From assembly GCA_963718585.1 (NCBI GenBank), contig OY970357.1:510001-542000 (forward strand): 32,000 nucleotides of DNA. Reading direction: 5' to 3'. Both the position numbers and the translations under genes were made by a program. This document shows positions 3,007 through 30,631 of the stretch, one piece after another. The DNA comes from Candidatus Saccharimonadota bacterium (GTDB lineage Bacteria > Patescibacteriota > Patescibacteriia > 2-12-FULL-60-25). Positions within the stretch are counted from its first letter, which is position 1; each line of letters opens with the position of its first letter. Below the pieces are notes generated by a model. That model searched no databases. It was not told the DNA's origin and worked only from the letters and a program-made list of their open reading frames with translations.

Positions 3007-3360
3007 TTATTTCACGAACTGGATCTGCGCGATCTCCGCGCCGTCCCCTTGTCGCTTTCCAAGCTTGATGATGCGCGTATATCCACCCGGGCGAGTCGCA
3101 TAGCGCGGCCCAAGTTCTGCGAGCACCTTATTCACGGCTGACTCGATGGTCAGGACGCGCGTCAACTGACGACGGGCCGTCAACGTATTCTTTCGCCCGG
3201 TCGTGATCAGCTTCTCGACGATCGGCTTCACCGCCTTCGCCTTCGCAAGCGTCGTGTTCATATGCTCATACAGCACCAGGCTGGTCGCCAAGTTCCGGAG
3301 AAGCATCTTCCGCGGACCGCTGGAACGGTCGAGCGTCTTTCCTTTGCGATTATGTTTCAT
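3007..3360 (-). CDS. rplQ: 50S ribosomal protein L17
   Basis: MKHNRKGKTLDRSSGPRKMLLRNLATSLVLYEHMNTTLAKAKAVKPIVEKLIT... matches the L17 signature, and it follows rpoA as in the alpha operon. Confidence 0.93.
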   Translation of the reverse strand: MKHNRKGKTLDRSSGPRKMLLRNLATSLVLYEHMNTTLAKAKAVKPIVEKLITTGRKNTLTARRQLTRVLTIESAVNKVLAELGPRYATRPGGYTRIIKLGKRQGDGAEIAQIQFVK

Positions 3361-6163: not shown

Positions 6164-7006
6164 TCAATGCCGGACCGGCGGGATCGAACGGAGCTTCTTC
6201 GGCTTTGCCGGATCATACGGACCCGCCCTTTCCCAATCCAACGGATAGACCGACGTGACCCGGTGCCCATCGAACGTCAACAGACAGTCTTTGATATACC
6301 AAGGTTTATCGATGAACATCTTTGTCCGAAATCGCTCTGCGAGAACCTGCATCTGCCGTTCGACCTCCTGCTGTGCCACTTCGATCTCATCCGGTGACCA
6401 TCCTTCATCTGGTAGCTTCTCCCAGATATCCTGCCCGGATCGTCCGGAGACATACGACATCATCAAATATGGATCTCCATTCACGTCCATGATCCCGAGG
6501 GGCTTTGGCGCGGGAAGTCCCATGATCTCCGCACGCTGCAGAATGCGCAATTCATGATCCGGTTCCGGCATCTTCTCGGTTTGGATGAGCTTGAGCACAA
6601 AATCCTTCCCGTCCATCCCCGGAAATTTCCATACGATCTCATTCACGGCCGACGCGCCGCGATCATCCGTTTGTGCATGCTTCAGGATCTCCCCGTGTTC
6701 CAGTGCATATGCGTACGCCCCTTCGATGAACGCAGACGGAAATTCTGACGCCGCCCCTGGCATGAGGCGGAGCGAGTATCCATCGCGTCGGACGTCGACT
6801 TCCTGCGAACGCGCCTCCTCGCTCCTGATCACCGCCAACGCGTAATCACGCAACCGCTTCTTCTCCCCCGCTGAACGCGGAGATGCTTCCAGTTTGCTCA
6901 AGATGTCTTCCGCACCGGATCGTGTCTGGATCAGCGCATTCAGCTCCCTTGCCTGTGGGAGCGGATCATGTGACTCATGACCAATGAATGCATTCTCCTG
7001 CAACAT
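6164..7006 (-). CDS. hypothetical protein with atypical protein-kinase-like/phosphotransferase-like fold features
   Basis: 280 aa. Motif order resembles a kinase-like fold: FVLKLI (beta3 Lys), HELRILQRAE (helix C Glu), DPYLMMSYVSGRSG (hinge), FIDKPWYIKDCLL (degenerate HRDxKPxN-like loop), YPLDWERA (DFG/IDW-like). The start ATG lies 1 nt after the alaS stop (TGAtATG). Confidence 0.35.
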   Translation of the reverse strand: MLQENAFIGHESHDPLPQARELNALIQTRSGAEDILSKLEASPRSAGEKKRLRDYALAVIRSEEARSQEVDVRRDGYSLRLMPGAASEFPSAFIEGAYAYALEHGEILKHAQTDDRGASAVNEIVWKFPGMDGKDFVLKLIQTEKMPEPDHELRILQRAEIMGLPAPKPLGIMDVNGDPYLMMSYVSGRSGQDIWEKLPDEGWSPDEIEVAQQEVERQMQVLAERFRTKMFIDKPWYIKDCLLTFDGHRVTSVYPLDWERAGPYDPAKPKKLRSIPPVRH

Positions 7007-7007
7007 A

Positions 7008-8882
7008 TCACGCGTTCGGTCCGGTCACGGTCGCCTTGATCCGGCGGACCCCAGCGGATACCGCCTCTTCTTTTTTGATCTTGAAACTCCCCAATTCCCC
7101 TGTATGGGTCACGTGCGGTCCTCCGCAGATCTCTTTGGAGAAATAGCCCTTTTCATCATCTCCAACGATATAGACCTTGATCTTGCCGCCAAGCTGCGCA
7201 TATTTATCCTCAAAATAGCCAAGTGCGCCTGAGTTCTTCGCATCTTCCAGCGACATGACCTCGAAATGGACCGGATAATCCGCCTTGATCGCATCGTTCA
7301 CGATCTGTTCGACTTTAGCGATCTCCTCGGGTGTCATCTTCTGCGGGTGCGAAAAATCAAAGCGCAGTCGTTCTGCCGTGATATTGCTCCCCTTTTGTTC
7401 CACATGGTCGCCCAACACCGTCCGTAGTGCCTTATGGAGGAGATGCGTCGCCGTATGAAGTCTCGTCGTCTCCTCGGAGGAATCAGCCAACCCGCCCTTG
7501 AACGTTCCAGCACTTGCCGTACGTGACAACTCTTGATGCTTCTTGAATTCCGCGGTAAACGCATCACGGTCCACGGACTGCCCTTGCTCGCGCAAGATCT
7601 CTTCCGTCAGCTCCAGCGGAAATCCATACGTCGAGAAAAGGACGAATGCCTGTTCGCCGGTCACAGGGCCCTTTGCGCGCATCTTTTCGAGTTCTTTCAT
7701 CCCTTTTTCCAGGGTCGCGGCGAATTTCTCCTCTTCTTTGACGACCTCGTCCATGATCCGGCCCCGGTTGGCCTCAAGCTCTTCGTAGAACGTCCCGTAT
7801 TCGCCGATGACCACGGCGGCGAGCTTGCCGAGAAATGCCCCGTCGATCCCGAGCCGCTTCCCCTCCCGAACGGTCCGACGGAGCAAACGCCGGACGATGT
7901 ATCCTTGTCCAACGTTCGACGGCGCAACGCCGCGCGCATCGCCGATCACGAACGTCGCCGCGCGGATATGGTCTGCGATGATCCGCATGGATCGATCCGT
8001 TGCTACATCCGTGCCATAGGTCTTGCCGCTGAGTTCTGCGATCGCCCCCATCAACACACGGAATTCCTGCGTATCAAAGACCGTCGGCACGTCTTGCATG
8101 ATCGCGGCCATGCGCTCCAATCCCATGCCCGTATCCACGTTCTTCTGCGCCAGCGGAGCGAAGGTCCCATCCGCCTGTTTGTCATACTGCATGAACACGT
8201 CATTCCAGATCTCGACGAACCGCCCGCAATCACAGTTCGGATGGCAGACCGCACCGAACGCGGGATCATGCGCTCGTCCCGTATCATAGAACATCTCCGT
8301 GTCCGGTCCGCATGGCCCGATCTGACCCGCCGGTCCCCACCAATTCTTCTTTTTTGGATACGGATAGATGCGCGGACCGTCGCCGTCTTTCGCAGGTTCG
8401 TCCGTCCCGGCCATCCCGATCTCTGCCGCGATCCCCGCGACCTCGAACTGCGCCTGCCAGATCCCGATGGATTCTTCATCCCGTTCGGCGTCCGCATCCC
8501 CTTCAAAGACCGTCACATACAGTCGTTTCGGGTCCAGCCCCATCCACGCCTTCCCCGTGAGGAACTCGAACGACCAGGCGATCGCCTCAGGCTTGAAATA
8601 ATCGCCGAATGACCAGTTCCCAAGCATCTCAAAGAATGTGAGGTGCCGGTTGTCGCCGACCTCATCGATATCATCAGTCCGGAGACACTTTTGAACGTCT
8701 GCGACACGCGTTCCCATGGGATGCGCCTGACCCATGAGATACGGGACAAGCGGATGCATCCCAGCCGTCGTGAACAAGACCGTCGGGTCGTTCTCCGGGA
8801 TCAAAGACGCGCTCGGGACGATCTCGTGCCCCTTGGAACGGAAAAAATCCAGGAATTTCGTACGGATATCAGATGCGGACAT
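7008..8882 (-). CDS. alaS: alanine--tRNA ligase, short form lacking the C-terminal C-Ala domain
   Basis: From ATG 8882 the protein reads MSASDIRTKFLDFFRSKGHEIVPSASLIPENDPTVLFTTAGMHP, a canonical AlaRS N-terminus. Editing-domain motifs HTATHLLHKAL and CGGPHV are present. The protein ends ~30 aa after the editing domain. The track ORF extends to a GTG at 8924, overlapping the upstream stop as GTGA; that is an alternative start. Confidence 0.93.
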   Translation of the reverse strand: MSASDIRTKFLDFFRSKGHEIVPSASLIPENDPTVLFTTAGMHPLVPYLMGQAHPMGTRVADVQKCLRTDDIDEVGDNRHLTFFEMLGNWSFGDYFKPEAIAWSFEFLTGKAWMGLDPKRLYVTVFEGDADAERDEESIGIWQAQFEVAGIAAEIGMAGTDEPAKDGDGPRIYPYPKKKNWWGPAGQIGPCGPDTEMFYDTGRAHDPAFGAVCHPNCDCGRFVEIWNDVFMQYDKQADGTFAPLAQKNVDTGMGLERMAAIMQDVPTVFDTQEFRVLMGAIAELSGKTYGTDVATDRSMRIIADHIRAATFVIGDARGVAPSNVGQGYIVRRLLRRTVREGKRLGIDGAFLGKLAAVVIGEYGTFYEELEANRGRIMDEVVKEEEKFAATLEKGMKELEKMRAKGPVTGEQAFVLFSTYGFPLELTEEILREQGQSVDRDAFTAEFKKHQELSRTASAGTFKGGLADSSEETTRLHTATHLLHKALRTVLGDHVEQKGSNITAERLRFDFSHPQKMTPEEIAKVEQIVNDAIKADYPVHFEVMSLEDAKNSGALGYFEDKYAQLGGKIKVYIVGDDEKGYFSKEICGGPHVTHTGELGSFKIKKEEAVSAGVRRIKATVTGPNA

Positions 8883-12886: not shown

Positions 12887-13645
12887 TCAACGTTGGACGA
12901 TCACGGGCGTCCCGACCGGCGTCCAATCGTACAAGTTCTTTGCCGGTCCGACGCCTAAGCGCACACATCCATGTGAGACCGGTGTCCCAAGATGATCCGC
13001 CCCTTCTTTTGCTCCACCTGGCCACTCGGGCAACTCGTGGATCCCGTCTCCATACCAGGTGAACTCCATCCACCACGGCATCCATAGACTCGCCATATGC
13101 GACCACGCACGTGGATTCTTATTCAACACATGGAACGTGCCGACCGGCGTAGGCGTTGATGGCTTTCCGGTCGATACGGTGTATGACGCCAGTGTCACAC
13201 CGCCAAGGCGTTGATCGAGCTGTTGATTCTTCAGGTGGATCACGATCTCCTTCTGAAGGGGCATAGGTGACGCGGAGGTCGGCGAATACCCGGAATCGAC
13301 CTCCAATCCATCCGGATATCCATCGCCGTCCGTATCCGCGGCCATGGGGTCCGAACCGAACAGGAGCTCCATTCGATCGTTCAATCCATCATGGTCGTAG
13401 TCCGCATCTTTCAGAGACCCCGATCCGTTCGGGTCATATCCGTTCACGATCTCCAAACGATCCGGATAGCCGTCTCCGTCCGTATCTGCCTTCGTGGGGT
13501 CTGTGTGAAAAACCTGTGTTTCCCACACATCCGGCAAGCCGTCACCATCCGTGTCGGTCGCGGATGTTGCCGCGAATGTCACGCGTGATAGGACGAGCCC
13601 GACGATGACGGCTACGAACCCGACGATCCAGAACGGACGACGCAT
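12887..13645 (-). CDS. L,D-transpeptidase (YkuD domain) with N-terminal thrombospondin-type-3-like calcium-binding repeats
   Basis: Signal/anchor MRRPFWIVGFVAVIVGLVL; four D-x-D-x-D-G-x-x-D repeats (DTDGDGLPD, DTDGDGYPD, DYDHDGLND, DTDGDGYPD); C-terminal YkuD catalytic motif SHGCVRL. Confidence 0.88.
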   Translation of the reverse strand: MRRPFWIVGFVAVIVGLVLSRVTFAATSATDTDGDGLPDVWETQVFHTDPTKADTDGDGYPDRLEIVNGYDPNGSGSLKDADYDHDGLNDRMELLFGSDPMAADTDGDGYPDGLEVDSGYSPTSASPMPLQKEIVIHLKNQQLDQRLGGVTLASYTVSTGKPSTPTPVGTFHVLNKNPRAWSHMASLWMPWWMEFTWYGDGIHELPEWPGGAKEGADHLGTPVSHGCVRLGVGPAKNLYDWTPVGTPVIVQR

Positions 13646-14333: not shown

Positions 14334-16679
14334 TTATGTTTGATCCAAGAAGTCAGGTCCCTTGTGGGCAGACGGCTCAGGCGTCTGACCGGAGGCATGC
14401 GGAAGCTTCCCATGCGCCAACCGCTTATCCAGCGGATTCACACCGGTGGGTGGCGTCAACTCGATCTCAAAGGGCGCACGTCCGGGAGGCGGTGGCGTCG
14501 CCTGATTGACGGAGGAGGTCGCGCGCTTGAAGACGGTCACGCTCCGTGGATCTTGAGAAACGGTCTTCGGTGGAGATGATGGCTCCTCCGATGAAACACT
14601 CGGAACGTCTGGTAGGTGCTCGGCACGTGGCGGGCGATCTTTTTGTCTTTTTTGCCGTTTCCGTCCCCGGTCCTCTTCCCGCGAAGGTCGATCACCGGTC
14701 AACTTCGCCTTATCCGTCTCGATCGGCTTTCCCTTTGAACGGACAAGCTCACTCAAGAGCGAATCCTCATCATCCTGTCCGGTGACGATCCGGATCGTCC
14801 CCTTTGGGGGCGCGGGACGCGGAGGTTGCGAGAAGCGCGGACGATTCGGTTCCTGACGCTTGGCCGGGGCCTTGCCGCCCTCGACCGTCGCATACATCTC
14901 ATGTAGGCGCTGCTCTCCGTCGTTCGACATCTTCCCGTCTTCGACCTTGATCCCCGCCGTCTCCAGATCCTTTTTCCCACCGCGCAATACATTCCGCATG
15001 ACATGTGACTTGGATTTTTGTTCTTCTTTGATGATGGGCAAACACTCCGCGCAATACATGGGCCGCGACGGATCGAGCTGAATGGGCATATCCCATTCTT
15101 TCCCGCACCGGGAACACACATGTTTGAACATGGGCTTTTGCTTTTTCTGTCCCTGCGGGGTCTTCACGATGGATGCCAGGCGTTCGGGTGAGATCGTCAG
15201 ATACTCCCGCGCCTCCGTCGGTGCCGTCCCCTCGAGCGCTTCGACGCCTGCACGCGCATATTCAGGCGTCCCCGGCTTGAGTCGTGCCGGCACGCCGCCC
15301 AGATCCTCACGCGCGGCACGCTCCTCTTCGGTCATGATGTCCGGATACGAAATGCCCGACGTCCCCGCATCCAGCGGTCCTTCCATCCCGCTCCATTTCA
15401 AGACCTTTTGTTGGATCTCTGAACGCGGCGTGGCGTATCTCTCGCGTGAGACGGCAATGACCTTCTCCTCTGAATCCATCCGTTGCGCGATCGGAGGTAG
15501 CGTATTCGCGGAAAAAGGCGCCGTCGCGACCCCATCCACCATCAATTTGAGATAGACTTGGAACTTCGTCAGGTTCACAAGATCCTCGATCGTGTACGTC
15601 GGTAGAAACTCGTTCTCCATGAATTGCGCATCTTCCGCGCCGACACGAAAGGTGACGATGGTCCCCACGTTCCCGAACACCGCCCACGCCACCTCTTCCT
15701 CCAGCTGTTTGATGTATTGATGCGCGACCACGAGGTTCAGGCGGTATTTCCGCGCTTCAGAAAGGATGTTCGCAAAAGATTGGTTCGCGAAGTTCTGGAA
15801 CTCATCGACATACAGATAGAAATCACGACGGTCTTCCTCGTGCTTGATATCCACGCGCTCCATGGCCGCCATCTGGAGCTTGGTGATGATCATGCCACCC
15901 AAAAGGCGCATGTTATCCTCGCCGATCTTCCCCTTGGAGAGATTCACGATCAGGATCTTCCCTTCATCCATGACCTTGCGCGGATCGATCGTGGACTTGA
16001 CCTGAGCGACGATGTTCCGGATCACGGACGCGGACAAGAATTGCCCCACCTTATTCTGGACAGGTGCGATCGCCTCGGTCGCATATTTCTCGGACCAAGA
16101 CGAAAACTCCGCGACCCAGAACGTCTTCACGATCGGATCACGGATCTTTGCGATCACGCGCTTACGATACTCGATGTCAACGAGTAACCGATTGATGCCC
16201 AATAGCGTCGCCCCTGGATAATCCAGCAATGCGAGGACGCAATTCTGCAGAATGTACTCCATGCGCGCGCTCCAGACGTCGGGCCAGATCTTTTTGAACA
16301 CGCCCATGAGCCCGCTCGCGACCAAATGCTTCTTGTCATCATCAACGGTCTCGAGGATATTGAATCCGACCGGATAGTCGACATCCGCCGGATTGAAGTA
16401 CACGACGTCATTGATCCGATGCGAAGGGATATAATCCAGGATCTTCTCTGCCGTATCACCATGCGGATCCACGTAGCAGACGCCATGACCGGCGTGGATA
16501 TCGGACAAGACCATGTTCTCGATGAGCGTGGTCTTTCCCATCCCGGTCTTCCCGATGATGTAGATGTGACGGCGTCGATCGTCGGTCTTGATACCGAAAC
16601 GCTTCCGTTGGTTCCGGAAGTTCGTCTCTGCGAAGAGAGTGATCTCGTTTTCGTGGTCGTGGTTGTAATCGATTGCCAT
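14334..16679 (-). CDS. VirD4/TraD/TrwB-like (type IV coupling-protein-like, FtsK-HerA superfamily) P-loop ATPase with C-terminal CxxC-x17-CxxC zinc ribbon and long disordered basic/Pro-rich tail
   Basis: Walker A IIGKTGMGKTTL, VDPHGD, Walker B-like DFYLYVDEFQNF, RKYRLNLVVAHQY. Zinc ribbon CSRCGKEWDMPIQLDPSRPMYCAEC. The last ~350 aa are low complexity (RGRKRQKRQKDRPPR, PPPPGRAP). The track start (16724) is a TTG inside an intergenic hairpin; ATG at 16679 (MAIDYNHDHENEITLF) is preferred. Confidence 0.85.
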   Translation of the reverse strand: MAIDYNHDHENEITLFAETNFRNQRKRFGIKTDDRRRHIYIIGKTGMGKTTLIENMVLSDIHAGHGVCYVDPHGDTAEKILDYIPSHRINDVVYFNPADVDYPVGFNILETVDDDKKHLVASGLMGVFKKIWPDVWSARMEYILQNCVLALLDYPGATLLGINRLLVDIEYRKRVIAKIRDPIVKTFWVAEFSSWSEKYATEAIAPVQNKVGQFLSASVIRNIVAQVKSTIDPRKVMDEGKILIVNLSKGKIGEDNMRLLGGMIITKLQMAAMERVDIKHEEDRRDFYLYVDEFQNFANQSFANILSEARKYRLNLVVAHQYIKQLEEEVAWAVFGNVGTIVTFRVGAEDAQFMENEFLPTYTIEDLVNLTKFQVYLKLMVDGVATAPFSANTLPPIAQRMDSEEKVIAVSRERYATPRSEIQQKVLKWSGMEGPLDAGTSGISYPDIMTEEERAAREDLGGVPARLKPGTPEYARAGVEALEGTAPTEAREYLTISPERLASIVKTPQGQKKQKPMFKHVCSRCGKEWDMPIQLDPSRPMYCAECLPIIKEEQKSKSHVMRNVLRGGKKDLETAGIKVEDGKMSNDGEQRLHEMYATVEGGKAPAKRQEPNRPRFSQPPRPAPPKGTIRIVTGQDDEDSLLSELVRSKGKPIETDKAKLTGDRPSREEDRGRKRQKRQKDRPPRAEHLPDVPSVSSEEPSSPPKTVSQDPRSVTVFKRATSSVNQATPPPPGRAPFEIELTPPTGVNPLDKRLAHGKLPHASGQTPEPSAHKGPDFLDQT

Positions 16680-16714
16680 ACGGCGAGGGGAAGGAACGGA
16701 CGAAAGAGCGTATG

Positions 16715-16789
16715 AAAATTCCAAATCTCAACACCCAAATCCGGAACAGATGAAAGAGCGAGGATTTGGATTTTGCGATCTGGAATTTT
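16715..16789 (-). promoter_or_regulatory. 75-nt AU-rich nested hairpin between the membrane-partner gene and the ATPase gene
   Basis: The outer arms AAAATTCCAAATCTC (16715-16729) and GATCTGGAATTTT (16777-16789) form 13 bp with one G-U. The inner arms CCAAATCC (16735-16742) and GGATTTGG (16762-16769) form 8 perfect bp. The loop is 19 nt. Confidence 0.45.
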
Positions 16790-16822
16790 TCGCTGACGCA
16801 AGCCAGTATACGCCCGCCGGTA

Positions 16823-18154
16823 TCACGGCGCAAACGGCAGATTGGCGGGTGGTTCCGTTCGTTTTGCTTCTGTCTTCTTCAACTGCGGCGTCTTCACCTG
16901 CAGGGAGTGCGGGAAATGCCACAACGTCGCCAATTCTTCGGTGCAAAGATGGAACGCGTTGAGCCCCGCCCAGTTGGAACGGCTCCGATACGCACGAAGG
17001 AACCGATTTTTCCGGCCATTGTTCCGCGATTTCTTGAACCACCACAACGCCCCGCTCATCCCGACGCGCTTGGTCTCGGGTTTGAGCGACTGCATGTTGT
17101 TCGTATTGAACTGTTTGATCGCACCGATGAATGGATACACGATGTGCGCCTTGCTCATCACCTGTTTCTTCGCCACATAGAGGAACCGGATCTTACACAG
17201 ATAGCCGATCTTGGAGACCTTATTCTCAACCGCACTCACAATGTCCCGTTCCGCCGTGGTCATATGCGCCAACTTCGAAGGCGGTTGCTCCTTTTTGATC
17301 ACCGGCTTCGAGTCCCCGCCTCCGCCGAGGAGCGTCTCCGATACCGCCCCCAAGGCTTTCAGGGGAAGATCCGCCGCATGATCGAGCATGGTCGGCTTTG
17401 ACGGCGTGATGCGACCGGTCAGCTTCTTCACCAGCGCCTCTCCCCGGTGTTGATACGCTTTTTGGTCGATCGGTGTGAGGACGATCTGATACCACGCCTG
17501 CTCGCCAGGTCCGAGACGCGAAAAACTCTCAAGGAGCGCCGAAAGCGGATCCTTGAACTCCAATGTGATGCGGTCTTCGAATTGCGTGTAGGTCTTGAGT
17601 GGGAGCACATCTTCGCTCCCCTTTCGTACCGGGGTCATCTCCGTCCCCCACAGGTCCCATTCCTCATCCGGATAGTGCTGTGGCACCTTCGCGGCGTAAT
17701 CTTCGACCTCCACGATCTCCGCATCCGGATACTGGGAATAGATCGCCGCCTCTACGATGTCCCGCAACGGTCGCGTCGTTCGGACCAGGAATTGGACGTG
17801 CCCTTCGATGGTGATGATCTCCATGGAGATCGTGTCCTGGGTTCGACCGACGATGTAGTTCTCGGTCCAGGTATTCGGCGCATGCGCCCCAGCGAGATAT
17901 GCGAACATGTTCTCGACCGCGCGCGGTCCTTGCTCGGAGGTCCGCGGAACATCGATCGCAAGGACGATGTACTCCTTGGCGGCGCCATACTTTGCCTGCC
18001 GTGATCCCTGGAACATCTTTACCGTCACCCATAAGGCGAACCACAACAAAATGAGCCACCCCCCATTGATGAGGAGGAAGAACATCGCCTGGAACGGGTT
18101 GTTCCCGATCTGGGCGATGAAGGCGGTCCAGTCAAACGCGAATAAGCCGTTCAT
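16823..18154 (-). CDS. membrane protein of unknown function, partner of the coupling-protein-like ATPase
   Basis: 443 aa with N-terminal TM segment FQAMFFLLINGGWLILLWFALWVTV followed by a large soluble region. C-terminal motif EELATLWHFPHS. No catalytic motif recognised. First gene after the secF terminator. Confidence 0.8.
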   Translation of the reverse strand: MNGLFAFDWTAFIAQIGNNPFQAMFFLLINGGWLILLWFALWVTVKMFQGSRQAKYGAAKEYIVLAIDVPRTSEQGPRAVENMFAYLAGAHAPNTWTENYIVGRTQDTISMEIITIEGHVQFLVRTTRPLRDIVEAAIYSQYPDAEIVEVEDYAAKVPQHYPDEEWDLWGTEMTPVRKGSEDVLPLKTYTQFEDRITLEFKDPLSALLESFSRLGPGEQAWYQIVLTPIDQKAYQHRGEALVKKLTGRITPSKPTMLDHAADLPLKALGAVSETLLGGGGDSKPVIKKEQPPSKLAHMTTAERDIVSAVENKVSKIGYLCKIRFLYVAKKQVMSKAHIVYPFIGAIKQFNTNNMQSLKPETKRVGMSGALWWFKKSRNNGRKNRFLRAYRSRSNWAGLNAFHLCTEELATLWHFPHSLQVKTPQLKKTEAKRTEPPANLPFAP

Positions 18155-18198: not shown

Positions 18199-18241
18199 AG
18201 AAAAAAGACGCCCTCGGCCCATAAGGAGGCGAGAGCGTCTT
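18199..18241 (-). terminator. intrinsic terminator of secDF
   Basis: Minus strand reads AAGACGCTCTCG...CGAGGGCGTCTT (12-bp stem with one G-U, plus coordinates 18205-18241) followed by TTTTTT. It sits 17 nt downstream of the secF stop. Confidence 0.65.
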
Positions 18242-19165: not shown

Positions 19166-21220
19166 TTATTCGTCGGAGGTCTTCTTATGCATGAAGAGCC
19201 ACGGCATCTTTGCCGGCAATCGGGTCCCGAGGATGCTCCGCAGGAATGTCCGGGTCACGAAAATGGCAGTGAACAGCGAGACCATGACACCGATCGCCAG
19301 GGTCAATGCGAATCCCTTGATCGATGCGGAGGTGAACATATACAGCACTGCACATGCGATCAACGTCGTCGCGTTCCCGTCTCGGATGGAAGGCCAGGCG
19401 CGCTTGAATCCTTCTTCCAAAGCCGTGACCGGTGAACGACCGCTCTTCAATTCTTCTTTGAGACGTTCAAAGACCAGGACATTCGCATCTACGGCGATAC
19501 CGAGCGACAGGATGAAACCCGCGATTCCGGAGAGCGTCAATGTGACGGGCACGAGCTTGAAGATCGCCCCGGACACGCCCACGTAGAGGACCAAGGCGAA
19601 GATCGCAAAGAGCCCCGGCAGTCGGTACCAGAAGAGCATGAACAGGGCGATGAAGAGGAAGCCATACAGACCTGCCACGAGCGATTTGTTGACGGAATCC
19701 TTTCCAAGCGTCGGACCGACCGTCTCTTGGGACACCAAGTTGATCGGGACCGGGAGCGCACCGGCTTGGAGGCGTTGCGCAAGCTGTTTCGCGTCATCGA
19801 TCGTGAAATTCCCGTTGATGACGGCCTGACCGTTCGGGATCTCGGTCTGCACGACCGGCTCGGAGATCGGCGTTCCATCGAGGAAGATCGCGACCGGCTT
19901 GCCGACGTTGCGCTTGGTGATGTCCGCGAAAAGCTTGGTCCCTTCATCGTTGAACTGGAGCGAGACCTGCGCCGAACCCGACTGCTGATCGAAGTCGAGC
20001 TGCGCGTGCTGAAGCTGCTTCCCCGTCAGGCCCGTGGACTTCCACTGATCCGGCGACGGGACAAAATCGGTCGTCACTGACTTCTTATAGTAAATGACCC
20101 GTGGTCGGATATCGTACACCGGCCGTTCATCCGTTTTGAGGATGATGTGATATCCGAATGGCGTTTCCACGACATCGGAGATCTGTCCTTTTTGGAGCTT
20201 AAAGGCCGCATCTTCGAACGCCGGGACCATATCGCCCTTGCCGAACCAGCCGAGATCACCTCCGCTTTGTGCTGCACCGGGTTCCTGCGAATATTTCTTG
20301 GCCATGGCCGCGAAATTCTCCGGCGTGAGTTGCTTGAGGATCTCCTCCGCCTTCGCCTTGGCCTGATCTTTGGTCATGGTCGTGGAAGACGGCGTACTCT
20401 GCGCACCCGCGTACTGGATCAGGATATGACTCGCGCGGACTTCCTGACCCGCCTCTTTGACGTCCTCGATCTTCGCGACAACGTACACGTCCTGCGCATC
20501 CAGCACCTGCGGGACCACGGTCCCGGTCGTGTGGTAGTCCTTGATCTCACTATAGAGCGGCGCGTACTGCGGTTTGTCCTTGATGAAACCGAGATCCCCG
20601 CCCGCGGCTTTGACCGCATCGTCATACGAATGATCACGTGCCATCGCCTCGACCGTGGAGGGATCCGCGATCGCCTTGGCGAGGTCCGCCTCTGCCTTCT
20701 TCTTGATCGCCACGTTGTTCGCATCCATCTGCTTCTGTTCATCCGCGGTCAATGGTCGGGTCGGCTCCGTATTCTGCTCCTTGAACTCGAGCGTCGGCGT
20801 CTCCCCAATGAGTTTGATCGCCTGATTCACGTCACTGATGCCCGCCAGCTCGACCGTGACGCGCCATGACGCCCCCGAGCGGGCCGTGGTCACGAGCGGC
20901 TCGGAAACACCCAACGAGTTCACGCGGCGTTCAATGACGTCGCGAACGCCGTCTACCGCGCTCTGACGGTCTGCCTGCGGCACTTTGCTCACATCCGCCT
21001 CGTACTCGAGATGTGTCCCTCCTTGGAGATCCAGACCGAGGACGTAGCCTTTATCGATATGACCGAGGTGGAATCCGAACCACGAATCGATCTTATCGAT
21101 GACCGTATTGGCGGCCGGTGGATAGGTTATGGCCCCCACGGCGAGGGCGAGAACGATCAGCGCATAAATGCGCTTTTTGATGGCGGCGCGGGAAAGCGTC
21201 CGAGAAGCCGGTTTAGACAT
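19166..21220 (-). CDS. secD: protein translocase subunit SecD carrying an inserted parvulin-type peptidyl-prolyl isomerase region in the periplasmic P1 domain
   Basis: SecD motifs LGLDLQGGTHLEYE, GKPVAIFLDGTPISEPVVQTEI..GNFT..AKQLAQRLQAGALPVP and GIAVDANVLVFERLKEE flank residues ~150-380. That stretch contains a canonical parvulin domain: VRASHILIQ...FAAMAKKYSQEPGAAQSGGDLGWFGKGDMVPAFEDAAF...ETPFGYHIILK. Confidence 0.92.
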   Translation of the reverse strand: MSKPASRTLSRAAIKKRIYALIVLALAVGAITYPPAANTVIDKIDSWFGFHLGHIDKGYVLGLDLQGGTHLEYEADVSKVPQADRQSAVDGVRDVIERRVNSLGVSEPLVTTARSGASWRVTVELAGISDVNQAIKLIGETPTLEFKEQNTEPTRPLTADEQKQMDANNVAIKKKAEADLAKAIADPSTVEAMARDHSYDDAVKAAGGDLGFIKDKPQYAPLYSEIKDYHTTGTVVPQVLDAQDVYVVAKIEDVKEAGQEVRASHILIQYAGAQSTPSSTTMTKDQAKAKAEEILKQLTPENFAAMAKKYSQEPGAAQSGGDLGWFGKGDMVPAFEDAAFKLQKGQISDVVETPFGYHIILKTDERPVYDIRPRVIYYKKSVTTDFVPSPDQWKSTGLTGKQLQHAQLDFDQQSGSAQVSLQFNDEGTKLFADITKRNVGKPVAIFLDGTPISEPVVQTEIPNGQAVINGNFTIDDAKQLAQRLQAGALPVPINLVSQETVGPTLGKDSVNKSLVAGLYGFLFIALFMLFWYRLPGLFAIFALVLYVGVSGAIFKLVPVTLTLSGIAGFILSLGIAVDANVLVFERLKEELKSGRSPVTALEEGFKRAWPSIRDGNATTLIACAVLYMFTSASIKGFALTLAIGVMVSLFTAIFVTRTFLRSILGTRLPAKMPWLFMHKKTSDE

Positions 21221-26874: not shown

Positions 26875-27856
26875 TCAAAAACCAAGGTATTGCACCTCGT
26901 CCTCGAGGAGGACGCCGAGTTCGTCGCGCACCTTCATTTTCACGAGACTGGAGAGTGCGAGTACATCCTGTGCTGTCGCGCCTCCGAGATTCACCAAAAA
27001 ATTCCCATGCACCGGACTCACCTGCGCCTTCCCCACGGTCTGCCCTTTCAACCCGAGCCGATCCACGAGCCATCCGGCCGGGATCCGTTTTGCGTCTAGA
27101 AATGTCTGCGGCACATCATCTTCCCGCTGCAATTTCACGATATCCGAAGGATCGGAGAATTCATAATTCTTGAACAGACATCCAGCCGTAAACGCGCCTT
27201 GCGGCTGGGTCTCTTTGCGTTTGGCCATGATCTCATCGATCCTCGCCTTCGCCACAGCTGCATCCCCCGCCTTCAACTCCAAGGTCGTCGAAAGGATCAC
27301 GTGCGGTTCGTGCTTGAACCGGCTGTCGCGATAGCCGAACCGACAATCCGCATTCGAATAGGTCACGCGCGTGCGGTTCGTCACGTCATACGCATCCACG
27401 GCCGCTACGACGTCCTTCATCTCTCCGCCGAAGCACCCGGCATCGCCATAGGTCGCACCGCCGATGGTCCCAGGAACGCCCACGCCCCATTCGAATCCCG
27501 TCAGCCCCGACAGCTGCCGTTGCTTTGCGACCAAGCCCGTGAAACACCCGGCCGCCGCCATCGACCTTCGTTCCTTCGATGGATCGCGCCCGATCCGTCG
27601 ACTGGATCACTACCCCTTGGTACCCATCATCTGAAACAAGCAGATTCGAACCTCCGCCAATGACGGCGAACGGGATCTCATTCGCGAGCGCGGCCTCGAC
27701 CGCGAGGACCGTCTCATCCGCGGATGCGGAGATGAGATACAAACGCGCAGGTCCACCGATCTTGAGGTACGTATGCATCGCCAATACCTCATGCTCTTTG
27801 ACATTGGGGATCGCCGTTTTGAACGCAGCGATCTGTTGCTCGGTCAATGGTCTCAT
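26875..27856 (-). pseudogene. murB: UDP-N-acetylenolpyruvoylglucosamine reductase MurB, interrupted by a 1-nt frameshift
   Basis: ORF 27386..27856 carries the MurB FAD-binding N-terminus (HTYLKIGGPARLY..., FAVIGGGSNLLVSD) up to SIEGTKVD. ORF 26875..27561, in another frame, continues with AAAGCFTGLV...LTGFEWGVGVPGTIGGATYGDAGCFG...YRDSRF. The frames join at GTC GAT G|GCG GCG GCC (~27556-27565); removing one G restores TKVDAAAGCF. Confidence 0.85.
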
Positions 27857-29265
27857 AGGATCTTTCGGATCGCGTCATCGATGTCTCCGGCGCCCATGAC
27901 GATCAGCACATCGCCGGCATGTGCGATCTCAAATGATCGTTTGACGGCCGCATCCGGATCAGACGCATATTCGACATCCCGCACGACCCCCCTATCCGCA
28001 TCATGCCGTTGGACCGCGTCTACCAGATCTTTTGACGAGATACCCGCATCTTCATCCGCATCACGTCCGGCGACGTCATAGATCTCGCAGAGAATGAGCG
28101 CATCAGCTGCATCGAAGCTGGGGACGAAATCCAAGAACAGATGTTTCGTCCGATTATGATGATGCGGCTGAAAACATAACACGATCCGCGCCTCAGGATG
28201 GATCTCATGCGCCGCAGAGAGGGTCGCGGCAACGGCCGTGGGATGGTGCCCATAATCGCTGATGATCCGCACGCCACCCTTCTCGCCAAGTGACTCGAAA
28301 CGCCGCCAGATCCCGTGAAAATCCGCCAGTGCGCGTGCGATCGTCGGATATGGCGCGCCAAGCTCCAATGCCATGAGCGCCGCCCCCGCCGCATTCATCG
28401 CATTGAACGTCCCGGGGACACCCAGCGCAAAACGATAGGTCGTCCCCTGCCGTTCAAGTTCCACATGCGTCGTTCCGTCCACGCGCGATGGCGTGACATG
28501 CCAGTCATCCGTGTCAGTTCCATTGAATCGGATCACACGCAATTTCAACGTCTCCAATGCCATGCGTTCCTGTTCGAGCAATCTCGCGACGTTCGGATCG
28601 CCGATGTTCGCGATGAGGACCCCCCCGAAACGGACCTTCCCGATCAATTCGCGAAATGCGTGGACCATGTCCTCCAACGATGGAAAGATATCCGTGTGGT
28701 CCCACTCGAGGTTCGTCAACAGCAATCCATACGGATCAAGGTCCAAAAAGTGTTTCGCATACTCATCCCCTTCGACGACAAAGAACTCGGAGGACCCAAT
28801 ACGGAGATTCCCATCCGGAAAAGACGGGACCTTGCTCCCGACCACGACCGTCGGATCCAGATCCGCCTGTTCGAGCGCAAGACCAAGCATCGCCGTGGTC
28901 GTGCTCTTCCCGTGCGTCCCAGCGACCACGATCATCTTCTTCGTCTTGAACCATTCTCCGAGGAACTGGAAATTCGTCAGCTCCGGAATGCTGCGACGCC
29001 GCGCTTCTTCACGTTCCGGATTATTCTCCGGCGCCGCGGACGTGTAGACGACAAGGTCTGCATCCGCAGGGACGTTCTTCACAGACTGTCCGATCATGAT
29101 CTTTGCTCCCTTTGACGCCAATGCCCGCGTCTGTTCATTTTCCACGGCGTCGGATCCGGATACGCGGACGCCGGAAGCGAGCAACAGCTTCCCCACCGCG
29201 GACATATTGATCCCGCCGGCGCCGACCAGATGGACGGCCTGTACGTCATGAACGTTCATGGCCAT
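27853..29265 (-). CDS. murC: UDP-N-acetylmuramate--L-alanine ligase MurC
   Basis: [29 protein letters not shown] (P-loop), EGDEY, Mur ligase C-terminal domain. 4-nt overlap with murB. Confidence 0.93.
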
Positions 29266-29311
29266 AGCCTACGGGAAGCGCCGGCTGACCGCAACGGAGT
29301 TTTCGACGTGG

Positions 29312-29340
29312 TTGCATCGGCCATCCTGCACGGATACCAT
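29312..29340 (+). promoter_or_regulatory. glyA promoter, leaderless geometry
   Basis: TTGCAT (29312-29317), a 17-nt spacer, then TACCAT (29335-29340), with 6 nt to ATG 29347. The predicted transcription start therefore falls on the A of the start codon. Confidence 0.5.
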
Positions 29341-29346
29341 CGGCGC

Positions 29347-30631
29347 ATGTCCTACCTCTCCGCCACCGACCCTGAGATCGCCGGCCTGATCGATGAAGAG
29401 ATCGACCGACAGCGCAACGACCTTGAGCTCATCGCGAGCGAGAATTATGTCAGCGAAGCCGTCCTCGAAGCCCTCGGGACCCCGCTGACGAACAAGTACG
29501 CAGAAGGATATCCGGGCAAACGGTACTACGGAGGGAACCAGGTCATCGATAAGATCGAATCCCTTGCGATCGACCGCGCGAACGCGGCTATTCTCCGCTG
29601 AACATGCGAATGTTCAGCCGCACGCGGGGGCGCAGGCGAATTTCGCGGTCTATCTTGCCCTTGCCAAACCTGGCGATACGATCCTCGCGATGGACCTCAA
29701 TGCCGGCGGACATCTGACACATGGATCTCCCGTGAACTTCAGCGGGAAATGGTTCGACATCGTCCCCTACGGTGTCCGGGAAGACGATGAGCGCGTGGAT
29801 ATGGATCAGGTCCGCGCGTTGGCGCGTGAAAAGAAACCCCGCGTGATCCTCGCGGGATTCAGCGCCTATCCGCGTACCCTTGATTTTGCGGCCTTCGCCG
29901 AGATCGCACACGAGGTCGGTGCGTATCTGTTCGTGGATATGGCGCACATCGCCGGATTGGTCGCCGCGGGACTCTCCCCTTCTCCGATCCCGCACGCGGA
30001 CGTGGTCTCGACGACCACACACAAGACCCTTCGCGGACCGCGCGGCGCCATCATCCTGTCGAAGACCGCGGACCGTCTCGATCCCGAAGGAAAAAAGACG
30101 CTCGCACAGAAGATCGACTCTGCGGTCTTTCCGGGTGCGCAGGGCGGACCCTTGGAACACTGCATCGCCGCCAAAGCCGTCGCATTCGAAGAAGCACTGC
30201 GCCCCTCATTCAAAACGTATCAACAGAACGTACTGTCGAATTGCCAAGCGCTTGCCGCAACGTTATTGGAGGAAGGTGCACGCCTTGTTTCCGGCGGATC
30301 GGATAATCACTTGCTTCTCGTCGACGTGACACCATGGGGCATCGGCGGGAAAGATGCCGAACGGACACTTGAAGAGGTCGGCGTCAGCGTGAACAAGAAC
30401 ATGATCCCGTTCGATAGACGGAAACCCATGGATCCATCCGGCATCCGTGTCGGGACGGCAGCGATCACGACACGCGGCTTCGACGATCGATCGACGCGCG
30501 AGGTCGGCCATCTGATCGCTCATGTCCTCAGATCCCCGACGGACGAGGTCAAGACCAAGACGGCGGCACGGATCCGGGAGATCGCGAACGCGCACTCCAT
30601 CTACCCAGGTCTCGCCAAATTGAGCGGATGA
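29347..30631 (+). pseudogene. glyA: serine hydroxymethyltransferase GlyA, interrupted by a 1-nt frameshift
   Basis: The frame from ATG 29347 gives [63 protein letters not shown]...AIDRAN and then hits a stop at 29599-29601. The +1 frame continues [19 protein letters not shown]...HKTLRGPRG... to 30631. Deleting C29583 restores [16 protein letters not shown]. Confidence 0.88.

Follow-up and report, generated by a model that had tools for sequence, protein, structure and literature searches.

A 32,000-nucleotide stretch of DNA from a Candidatus Saccharimonadota bacterium (NCBI GenBank assembly GCA_963718585.1, contig OY970357.1, positions 510,001 to 542,000; the whole stretch is hereafter called the window, and positions are counted from its first letter) carries two adjacent genes on the minus strand, one for a membrane-anchored protein with a DUF8128 domain, here called the partner, and one for a soluble ATPase. 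By comparison of their sequences with those of plasmid-encoded proteins, the pair is identified as a single type IV coupling protein (T4CP) of the monoderm type that comes as two chains, one with the membrane anchor and one with the motor. Across the loci examined, the split is invariable and the synteny strict. An original prediction, made from the letters of the window alone, had placed both genes correctly, as judged from the list of open reading frames (ORFs) and, for the start of the ATPase, from 34 homologues, and all the motifs that it quoted occur in the two translations. It had taken the partner for a separate anchor of unknown affinity; this part has to be revised, since profile comparison (hhalign) with fused T4CPs identifies the partner as the detached N-terminal half of a T4CP. 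The main elements of the pair are:

16823..18154, minus strand: partner gene, 443 amino acids (aa), DUF8128 (PF26449), assigned as detached N-terminal half of a T4CP (ORF list, PF26449 annotation, hhalign)
14334..16679, minus strand: ATPase gene, 781 aa, soluble and T4CP-like (Pfam, NCBIfam, Foldseek)

Comparison with fused coupling proteins of Gram-positive plasmids

Fused T4CPs were collected by a tblastn search of plasmids with the motor domain of the ATPase. The plasmid relatives recovered in this way are much nearer to the window ATPase than is TrwB:

Sulfitobacter, stand-alone ATPase: 41% identity, E 4e-93
Priestia: 38-43% identity, E 2e-23, about 40% over the comparable part of the ORF
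Embleya and Streptomyces: 33-34% identity, E 1e-60 to 1e-71
Haloarchaea: 28-30% identity, E 1e-32 to 3e-40
TrwB: 31% identity over the P-loop region only (67 aa), E 1e-5

The fused proteins considered here, with the linker motif where it was read, are:

Embleya sp. NBC_00896 plasmid, WP_331738717.1, 812 aa, ELAALAHLP
Streptomyces, WP_310876050.1, 823 aa, ELATLAHLP
S. aureus pY96A, WP_095325436.1, 863 aa, ELANFVHMP
Priestia record NZ_CP045273.1, unannotated ORF

In the Embleya, Streptomyces and S. aureus proteins the ATPase match makes up the C-terminal half of a chain of 812-863 aa (25-34% identity), and the N-terminal halves contain a transmembrane (TM) helix and, about 70 aa before the Walker A motif, a conserved ELAxLxHxP motif. 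The correspondence is most clearly followed on the 812-aa Embleya protein, on which residues 11-395 of the window ATPase match residues 397-781 (33% identity, E 1e-71), while the tail of the partner (residues 403-440) matches residues 356-391, just before the start of the ATPase at 397. As the partner tail and the ATPase are thus contiguous on one protein, the pair would represent the two halves of one ancestral T4CP. In the window the two are separated by the stop codon of the partner at 16823-16825 and a spacer of 143 nt, and the ATPase has its own ATG at 16679.

A tblastn search of plasmids with the N-terminal domain of the Embleya T4CP returned only three records, and profile methods were needed because this domain is too divergent for BLAST. 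Overall, hhalign aligned the partner profile with the fused N-termini at probabilities of 93.9-99.4: the N-terminus of the Priestia ORF gave a probability of 99.2 (E 3e-19, 378 columns), three actinobacterial N-termini gave 93.9 (E 1.6e-7), and five N-termini, with those of Streptomyces BB1 and S. aureus added, gave 96.9 (E 1.6e-10). The Priestia ORF was also matched by the partner profile in hmmsearch with 79 bits, and a Walker A motif is present at aa 428 of the same ORF.

The fused Gram-positive T4CPs therefore have the same parts in the same order as the pair, namely a TM helix, a DUF8128-like domain, an ELAxLxHxP linker and a T4CP ATPase. They differ in being single polypeptides borne on plasmids beside genes for VirB4-like, PrgI, Replic_Relax relaxase, TcpC or NlpC/P60 proteins, whereas the window pair is split, chromosomal and without a gene of a type IV secretion system (T4SS) in the 32-kb window. 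The Embleya gene, in particular, is accompanied by PrgI, a VirB4-like ATPase (AAA_10, TraG P-loop), Replic_Relax and NlpC/P60; Replic_Relax also follows the Streptomyces and S. aureus genes, in S. aureus together with TcpC. As the partner corresponds to the detached N-terminal half of a T4CP from such conjugative modules, the module in the window would be derived from conjugation. A further difference lies in the zinc ribbon and long tail of the window ATPase, which the fused T4CPs lack (no zf_Tbcl_2 in the two proteins scanned).

Three further plasmid records were recorded alongside. The closest relative of the ATPase found outside the Patescibacteria is a stand-alone protein of 395 aa with 40.7% identity, encoded on the Sulfitobacter mediterraneus plasmid NZ_CP081110.1 (positions 6986-8173 of our region L096), with transposases beside it and no adjoining DUF8128 gene. 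On the B. subtilis plasmid CP025942.1 (L102, 2536-4626) there is an ATPase of 696 aa whose first ~130 residues weakly match residues 306-443 of the DUF8128 protein (E 0.03), which hints at intermediate, shortened N-terminal domains in the family. The Priestia region (NZ_CP045273.1, 690240-698621; L099), labelled as P. megaterium plasmid pFDU301A in a record of 1.08 Mb with one annotated feature, has a GC content of 34%, and its fused DUF8128-T4CP gene is broken by an in-frame stop (3346-3348) and a frame change near 4694 in L099 coordinates.

The motor half

The ATPase ORF is open from a TTG at 16724 (14334..16724); the ATG at 16679 was chosen from an alignment of 34 homologues with the consensus start MPIxYNHDHENE. 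The best 19-residue hydropathy window scores 1.32 and falls within the ATPase domain, and the protein is without a convincing TM segment of its own. The search for homologues returned at least 8,000, all at E <= 0.001. Features of the protein are:

16530..16553, minus strand: Walker A GKTGMGKT, aa 43-50, within HIYIIGKTGMGKTTL (aa 38-52); G43, K44, T45, G46, G48, K49 and T50 invariant
15789..15824, minus strand: Walker B region DFYLYVDEFQNF, aa 286-297; D286, F287, Y288, V291, D292, E293, F294, Q295, N296 and F297 invariant
15036..15134, minus strand: predicted treble-clef zinc ribbon CxxC-x17-CxxC, aa 516-548; C522, C525, C543 and C546 invariant, predicted local distance difference test (pLDDT) 82-88
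14337..15035, minus strand: C-terminal tail, aa 549-781, low-complexity, charged, proline-rich and predicted disordered from its composition and its variation among homologues

The motifs VDPHGD and RKYRLNLVVAHQY are also found in the translation. Three Pfam families scored above their cut-offs, namely TrwB_AAD_bind (8.4e-11, 41.8 bits, cut-off 20.5), TraG-D_C (1.6e-5, 25.3 bits, cut-off 22) and T4SS-DNA_transf (1.7e-4, 21.0 bits, cut-off 20.1), and the best NCBIfam matches are TraD/VirD4 models (SXT_TraD, 4e-14). The zinc ribbon matched zf_Tbcl_2 at 5.9e-6 with 26.3 bits, just below the cut-off of 27, and TIGR04272 at 3.3e-7. The tail varies in length and sequence, homologues being 590-755 aa long; the C-terminal 351 residues contain 58 lysine and arginine, 52 aspartate and glutamate, and 43 proline residues.

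The AlphaFold2 (AF2) model of residues 1-565, of moderate confidence (pLDDT 68.8), predicts a RecA-like core with an all-helical insertion of seven helices (residues ~114-224) between Walker A and Walker B. Foldseek ranked TrwB first (E 1.3e-10, target-length-normalised TM-score 0.53-0.55), followed by HerA, Cag-beta (1.6e-9), DotL (2.7e-8) and the C-terminal domain of VirB4 (1.7e-7; 4ag5, target-length-normalised TM-score 0.60); HerA structures ranked below TrwB, with HerA-Sir2 and DUF4297-HerA complexes low in the list. Sequence searches of the PDB gave DotL and TrwB, with alignments that begin at residue 47, the same position as in the soluble TrwB-deltaN70 construct. By sequence and predicted structure, the ATPase is thus a member of the T4CP family (VirD4/TraG/TraD/TrwB), in agreement with the original prediction of a VirD4/TraD-type protein.

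Canonical T4CPs (TrwB of R388, VirD4/Cag-beta, TraD and DotL) share with it the nucleotide-binding fold with a helical insertion and the Pfam families above cut-off. They have a short two-helix N-terminal TM domain of their own and no DUF8128, whereas the window ATPase has no TM segment and the helix resides on a separate upstream protein; and they are encoded together with a T4SS, a relaxase or both, of which there is none in the 32 kb around the pair. In the Legionella coupling complex the T4CP DotL works together with separate membrane-anchored and zinc-binding partners (DotM, DotN and others). DotL is a sequence and structure match of the window ATPase, but has its own TM domain; DotM is not among the 50 Foldseek matches listed for the partner, and the partner would be a detached piece of the T4CP itself rather than an adaptor.

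The membrane-anchored half

The N-terminus of the partner (MNGLFAFDW) agrees with the consensus start of its homologues. The assignment to PF26449.1 comes from the precomputed annotation of a database protein of 100% identity and of nearly all homologues, and the UniRef name is DUF8128; the NCBIfam models gave no match. The features of the protein are:

18017..18091, minus strand: predicted single N-terminal TM helix, ~aa 22-46 (hydropathy and AF2 helix 20-59)
16910..16939, minus strand: EELATLWHFP motif, aa 406-415; E407, A409, W412, H413 and P415 invariant in 40 homologues
16826..16909, minus strand: tail, aa 416-443 (...PQLKKTExKRxEPPxNLPF), conserved; counterpart of the linker in the fused homologues

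The best 19-residue Kyte-Doolittle window scores 2.08 and starts at residue 23, and the motif FQAMFFLLINGGWLILLWFALWVTV is present; together with the lower value for the ATPase, this bears out the earlier proposal that the ATPase has no anchor of its own and that the upstream gene supplies one. According to the positive-inside rule (K47, R52, K55 and K60 after the helix) the topology would be N-out/C-in, which would place the large domain in the cytoplasm. The AF2 model (pLDDT 77.9, predicted TM-score 0.72) consists of the long TM helix and an alpha/beta domain of ~360 aa. Residues 422-443 are predicted to be disordered (pLDDT below 50), yet P423, K431, P436 and P440 within them are invariant.

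The partner has more than 3,100 homologues, and a profile search of 1.84 billion representative proteins yielded 2,699 clusters at 50% identity. The best 150 of these clusters have lengths of 240-691 aa and hence include no fusion to an ATPase, nor was one found among the ~390 Patescibacteria homologues listed, the longest of which has 691 aa. The named homologues are nearly all from Patescibacteria, many of them from Uhrbacteria, and no relatives of the partner were found in plasmids and phages by tblastn or in a scan of IMG/VR. A sequence search of the PDB with partner profiles, one of which included the fused N-termini, gave at best FixJ (E 0.87) and ribosomal protein L18 (E 1.7). With homologues in such numbers, the partner and the ATPase are genuine genes, far beyond chance.

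The pair as a conserved unit

Eighty loci were obtained with the partner profile and four more distant ones were added from Komeili-, Falkow- and Parcubacteria, giving 84 in all. In 79 of the 80 the next gene downstream of the partner, on the same strand, is that of the ATPase (the remaining locus ends at a contig edge), and the same holds for all four distant loci, in which the two genes are 3-7 nt apart. Strict co-occurrence is therefore seen at 83 of 83 loci with room for the second gene, in lineages named as Uhr-, Falkow-, Kerfeld-, Komeili- and Parcubacteria. Most of the 84 loci have secD-secF upstream, and mnmA and alaS are found repeatedly on the downstream side, which indicates that the block is vertically inherited; secDF are not nearby in L019, L063, L064, L073, L075 and L080 (locus numbers are ours). 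Across the loci the ATPase domain is 59-86% identical with the partner at 40-64%, and the 120 best matches to the ATPase show identities of 77-88%. These data show strong purifying selection and chromosomal inheritance of the pair.

In lineages other than Uhrbacteria, a gene for a protein of ~380 aa with an N-terminal Sigma70_r4 and a C-terminal HARE-HTH (helix-turn-helix) domain is found between secF and the DUF8128 gene; the window has none. Besides the four distant loci listed below it occurs in L067, L068, L072, L074, L076 and L079, and in L083 and L084 it is only 3-7 nt from the DUF8128 gene:

L081, 6770-7882: Sigma70_r4/HARE-HTH gene
L082, 6701-7888: Sigma70_r4/HARE-HTH gene
L083, 6843-7997: Sigma70_r4/HARE-HTH gene
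L084, 6852-7994: Sigma70_r4/HARE-HTH gene

Predicted structural likeness of the partner to VirB4, and other ATPase families

In a Foldseek search of the PDB with the partner model, the 12 best matches were full-length TrwK/VirB4 chains of the R388 T4SS (probability ~1.0, E 4e-5 to 1.6e-3, query-length-normalised TM-score only 0.31-0.38), followed by chains of the mycobacterial ESX-3 complex. Structures of the VirB4 C-terminal domain alone and of other RecA ATPases are absent among the 50 matches listed, though they match the ATPase model. As only full-length VirB4 was matched, the likeness would be to the VirB4 N-terminal domain, which the predicted partner domain appears to resemble at the level of the fold only. 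VirB4 (TrwK of R388; reference record NC_028464) and VirB3-VirB4 fusions show the same layout of a membrane element, an N-terminal alpha/beta domain and a RecA-like ATPase. They differ in that VirB4 has no sequence relationship with the partner, and that the window ATPase lacks CagE_TrbE_VirB and AAA_10 and groups with T4CPs by sequence. A link in sequence between partner and VirB4 was rejected, as hhalign gave a probability of 0.2 both against TrwK and for the 185-sequence profile against an 11-sequence profile of MPF_T VirB4.

Several other assignments of the ATPase were tried and likewise rejected. For a VirB4-type ATPase there was no match to CagE_TrbE_VirB or AAA_10, and the VirB4 models of NCBIfam matched only over the P-loop (E 0.004-0.014). 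For FtsK/SpoIIIE, the FtsK_SpoIIIE family scored 14.1 bits at a cut-off of 24, over the P-loop only. For HerA, DUF87 scored 21.9 bits at a cut-off of 23.2, HerA structures rank under TrwB, and there is no nuclease gene in the neighborhood.

Proposed mechanism and relation to a type IV secretion system

We propose that the two genes encode one T4CP in two polypeptides, which would be coupled to a T4SS encoded elsewhere in the genome, and estimate the probability of this reading at roughly 0.55. The partner tail, as the former linker, would hold the N-terminus of the ATPase, so that the partner tethers the probably hexameric ATPase ring to the membrane, where ATP hydrolysis would drive or gate the delivery of a substrate. 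This substrate would most likely be a nucleic acid or a protein bound to nucleic acid, as is suggested by the zinc ribbon and basic tail of the ATPase and, in sister lineages, by the Sigma70_r4/HARE-HTH gene of the same operon. It might then be handed to the T4SS of conjugative origin that is present elsewhere on the chromosome in most Patescibacteria, and the predicted VirB4-NTD-like (N-terminal domain) fold of the partner may provide a docking surface for that T4SS.

The genome-level background comes from the study of Quinonero-Coronel et al. 2025 (PMC12102498). There, VirB4 is reported in 2,417 of 3,035 Patescibacteria genomes and T4CP homologues in 2,918 of them; only 148 of 5,713 VirD4-type matches are near virB4, and the T4SS is described as being of MPF_FATA (monoderm) ancestry and usually without a T4CP gene nearby. 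The four pair-carrying genomes that could be located in Table S1 of that paper are all positive for VirB4. The description of the pair as an orphan in the original prediction thus holds locally, within the window, and does not hold at the level of the genome, given these counts for VirB4.

Several observations weigh against a coupling to a T4SS. No T4SS gene is present within 14 kb on either side of the pair, and the likeness to the VirB4 N-terminal domain is structural only, with the low TM-scores and the hhalign probability given above. According to PMC12102498, which cites the transposon sequencing (Tn-seq) study in question, the T4SS of Southlakia is essential and its t4cp homologue is not; this homologue may or may not be an orthologue of the window pair. 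By the counts of the same paper, T4CP homologues occur in ~500 more genomes than VirB4, and in its table Uhrbacteria GW2011_GWF2_39_13, a draft assembly, has a T4CP and VirB2 and no VirB4. Relaxases are also reported there to be nearly absent from Patescibacteria, which makes a classical relaxase-DNA substrate unlikely.

Alternative explanations

It is possible, at odds clearly below even, that the pair works independently of any T4SS as an exapted housekeeping translocase, a stand-alone ATPase ring, tethered to the membrane, that acts on DNA or some other polymer by itself or together with a different machine of the envelope, for example by pulling in DNA through ComEC and type IV pili for nucleotide scavenging, by DNA export, or in chromosome resolution or segregation. 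A more specific form of this idea, which we hold a little more tentatively still, is that the split T4CP has become a core nucleic-acid translocase tethered to the membrane, possibly powering the import or export of DNA for nucleotide-auxotrophic epibionts, in which case the VirB4-NTD-like partner would be its own membrane platform and the Sigma70_r4/HARE-HTH protein a DNA adaptor. The steady housekeeping synteny across lineages (secD-secF-[HTH]-DUF8128-ATPase ... mnmA ... alaS), the very strong conservation of the ATPase and the failure to find the partner in plasmids, phages and IMG/VR are all consistent with such a role, and the zinc ribbon, basic tail and linked Sigma70_r4/HARE-HTH gene again indicate nucleic acid. 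T4CP homologues are also more widespread than VirB4 (PMC12102498) and are kept in the VirB4-negative Uhrbacteria draft, and the authors of that study themselves raise exaptation as a possibility. Against this, most pair-carrying genomes checked have VirB4, the VirB4-negative genomes are drafts whose missing genes may reflect incompleteness, and the same genomes also match a second T4CP profile, t4cp2, in Table S3 of that study. Moreover, none of the loci seen has a competence or division gene linked to the pair. The matches to t4cp2 are presumably FtsK/TcpA-like proteins, which would argue against a replacement of FtsK. The original prediction saw a housekeeping translocase rather than a remnant of conjugation; the module appears to be derived from conjugation, with a T4SS-independent role being possible.

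The remaining explanations are less probable than either coupling to a T4SS or exaptation. An accessory motor tied to SecDF/Sec or to envelope biogenesis, which would deliver or energise protein substrates at the membrane, appears very unlikely. It would fit the position of secD-secF directly upstream in most of the 84 loci, distant lineages included, and that of secA, which in the window is at a distance of 5.5 kb and in L084 immediately precedes the block; some T4CPs recruit protein effectors, and DotL is among the sequence and structure matches of the ATPase. Adjacency is weak evidence, however, as Patescibacteria keep long syntenic blocks, and a strong terminator separates secF from the pair in the window, an unrelated HTH gene intervenes in other lineages, secDF are not nearby in six loci, and to our knowledge no T4CP works with Sec. 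We consider it still more improbable that the ATPase belongs to an anti-phage defence system of the mad8 (MADS) or HerA type with the partner as effector or sensor. The PADLOC model mad8 did match with 72.9 bits (E 8e-21), above any Pfam T4CP model, a score suggesting that mad8 and the window ATPase share one lineage of soluble T4CP-like ATPases; there are also weak matches to HerA models, and the HerA-Sir2 and DUF4297-HerA complexes are low in the Foldseek list. However, no methyltransferase, nuclease or other MADS gene is present in the window and the partner has no PADLOC match; the housekeeping context, fixed gene order and high conservation are the opposite of a defence island, and the homology of the partner to the N-terminal domain of conjugative T4CPs would explain the pair fully. 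Finally, the fused homologues reside in conjugative modules and two other genes of the window look frameshifted (SHMT and MurB, see below), as might be expected if the pair were a decaying remnant of an integrated conjugative element whose T4CP gene was broken in two by mutation. This explanation is effectively refuted by the conservation data: the same split occurs in 83 independent assemblies with a separate start codon for each half, none of the ~390 Patescibacteria homologues listed is fused, the ATPase retains its high identity among the 120 best matches, and no integrase, relaxase or repeat boundary was found in the window.

Relation to published findings and significance

A large part of bacterial diversity falls within the Patescibacteria. 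In the one genetically tractable member, according to the literature, epibiotic growth requires the T4SS, whose gene cluster contains no recognisable coupling protein. Remote T4CP homologues of Patescibacteria have already been reported (PMC12102498), and these are very probably the same genes as the window ATPase. In the passages of that paper that were searched we found no mention that a DUF8128 gene precedes the ATPase gene, that the protein is split, that the TM domain is missing or that the locus is syntenic with secDF, and a full-text search of a literature collection returned no paper mentioning DUF8128 or PF26449. Three findings were thus not seen described before: the obligate DUF8128 partner, the recognition of the pair as a probable split version of the long Gram-positive T4CP, and the predicted likeness of the partner's fold to the VirB4 N-terminal domain.

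The ubiquitous remote 'T4CP homologue' would accordingly be half a protein, its other half being encoded by the adjoining DUF8128 gene, which explains how the ATPase can be without a membrane anchor. DUF8128, with its ~2,700 clusters at 50% identity, becomes readable as the N-terminal domain of a T4CP lineage shared with Gram-positive conjugative elements, an identity that fits the proposed monoderm origin of the T4SS of Patescibacteria. The VirB4-NTD-like fold, if confirmed, would join the architectures of T4CPs and VirB4. Two defined proteins and a conserved tail motif are now to hand for asking whether the motor serves a T4SS or another process.

Genomic context and transcription boundaries

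The window has a GC content of ~57%, with the majority of its genes on the minus strand. By Pfam, the pair is preceded by SecF and SecD and followed by an alpha/beta hydrolase, a YkuD L,D-transpeptidase and an S11 DD-carboxypeptidase, so that it is indeed embedded, as first described, between Sec translocon genes and cell-wall enzymes. Further out are the ribosomal proteins S9, L13, L17, S4, S11 and S13, RpoA, AlaRS, MnmA and a radical-SAM enzyme, and elsewhere SecA, MurB, MurC and serine hydroxymethyltransferase (SHMT). The 40 other ORFs of the window gave Pfam matches to housekeeping or envelope families or none at all; among them there were no matches to relaxase, VirB4, VirB6, pilin or integrase families, and no T4SS component or transposase was recognised. 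No repeat boundary of a mobile element was found in the 32 kb, and Rfam identified no family in the whole window. The claim that T4SS and mobile-element genes are missing from the window thus stands, as does that of a syntenic housekeeping neighborhood, and the searches for the partner in plasmids, phages and IMG/VR were negative. Two non-coding elements adjoin the genes of the pair:

18199..18241, minus strand: intrinsic terminator of secF, hairpin followed by a U-run; upstream boundary of the pair in this genome
16680..16822, minus strand: intergenic spacer of 143 nt with a long hairpin, an inverted repeat with arms at 16715-16742 and 16762-16789

The secF terminator, already noted in the original prediction, was corroborated by its fold (minimum free energy -26.7 kcal/mol, z = -3.5). 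A consensus scan for promoters and terminators, which gave no excess over shuffled sequence, overlooked it. The spacer hairpin (16715-16789) is formed by a 28-nt inverted repeat of 86% complementarity with ~27 bp (fold z = -4.7) and is followed by a U-rich stretch. It is unique within the window, and relatives, whose spacers are often 3-30 nt long, lack it; as an attenuator it might control in what ratio the two halves are made.

Some neighboring genes show features of their own. In SecD (19166-21220, minus strand) the first periplasmic domain is separated from the P1 head by an inserted peptidyl-prolyl isomerase domain of the parvulin type (Rotamase_3, 4e-40), an architecture also present in the Komeili-, Falkow- and Parcubacteria loci (L081-L084). 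SHMT is found on the plus strand in two overlapping ORFs (29230-29601, profile positions 1-77; 29564-30631, positions 78-399), and MurB on the minus strand in two ORFs (27386-27856, FAD_binding_4; 26875-27561, MurB_C); both look like frameshifts, either from assembly indels or from real gene disruption. At its N-terminus the YkuD L,D-transpeptidase (12887-13645, minus strand) carries calcium-binding repeats of the bacterial TSP3 type (2.5e-17). If the alpha/beta hydrolase ORF is taken to start at its first ATG (14413), it shares 80 nt (14334-14413) with the 3' end of the ATPase gene; the actual start is probably a methionine further downstream.

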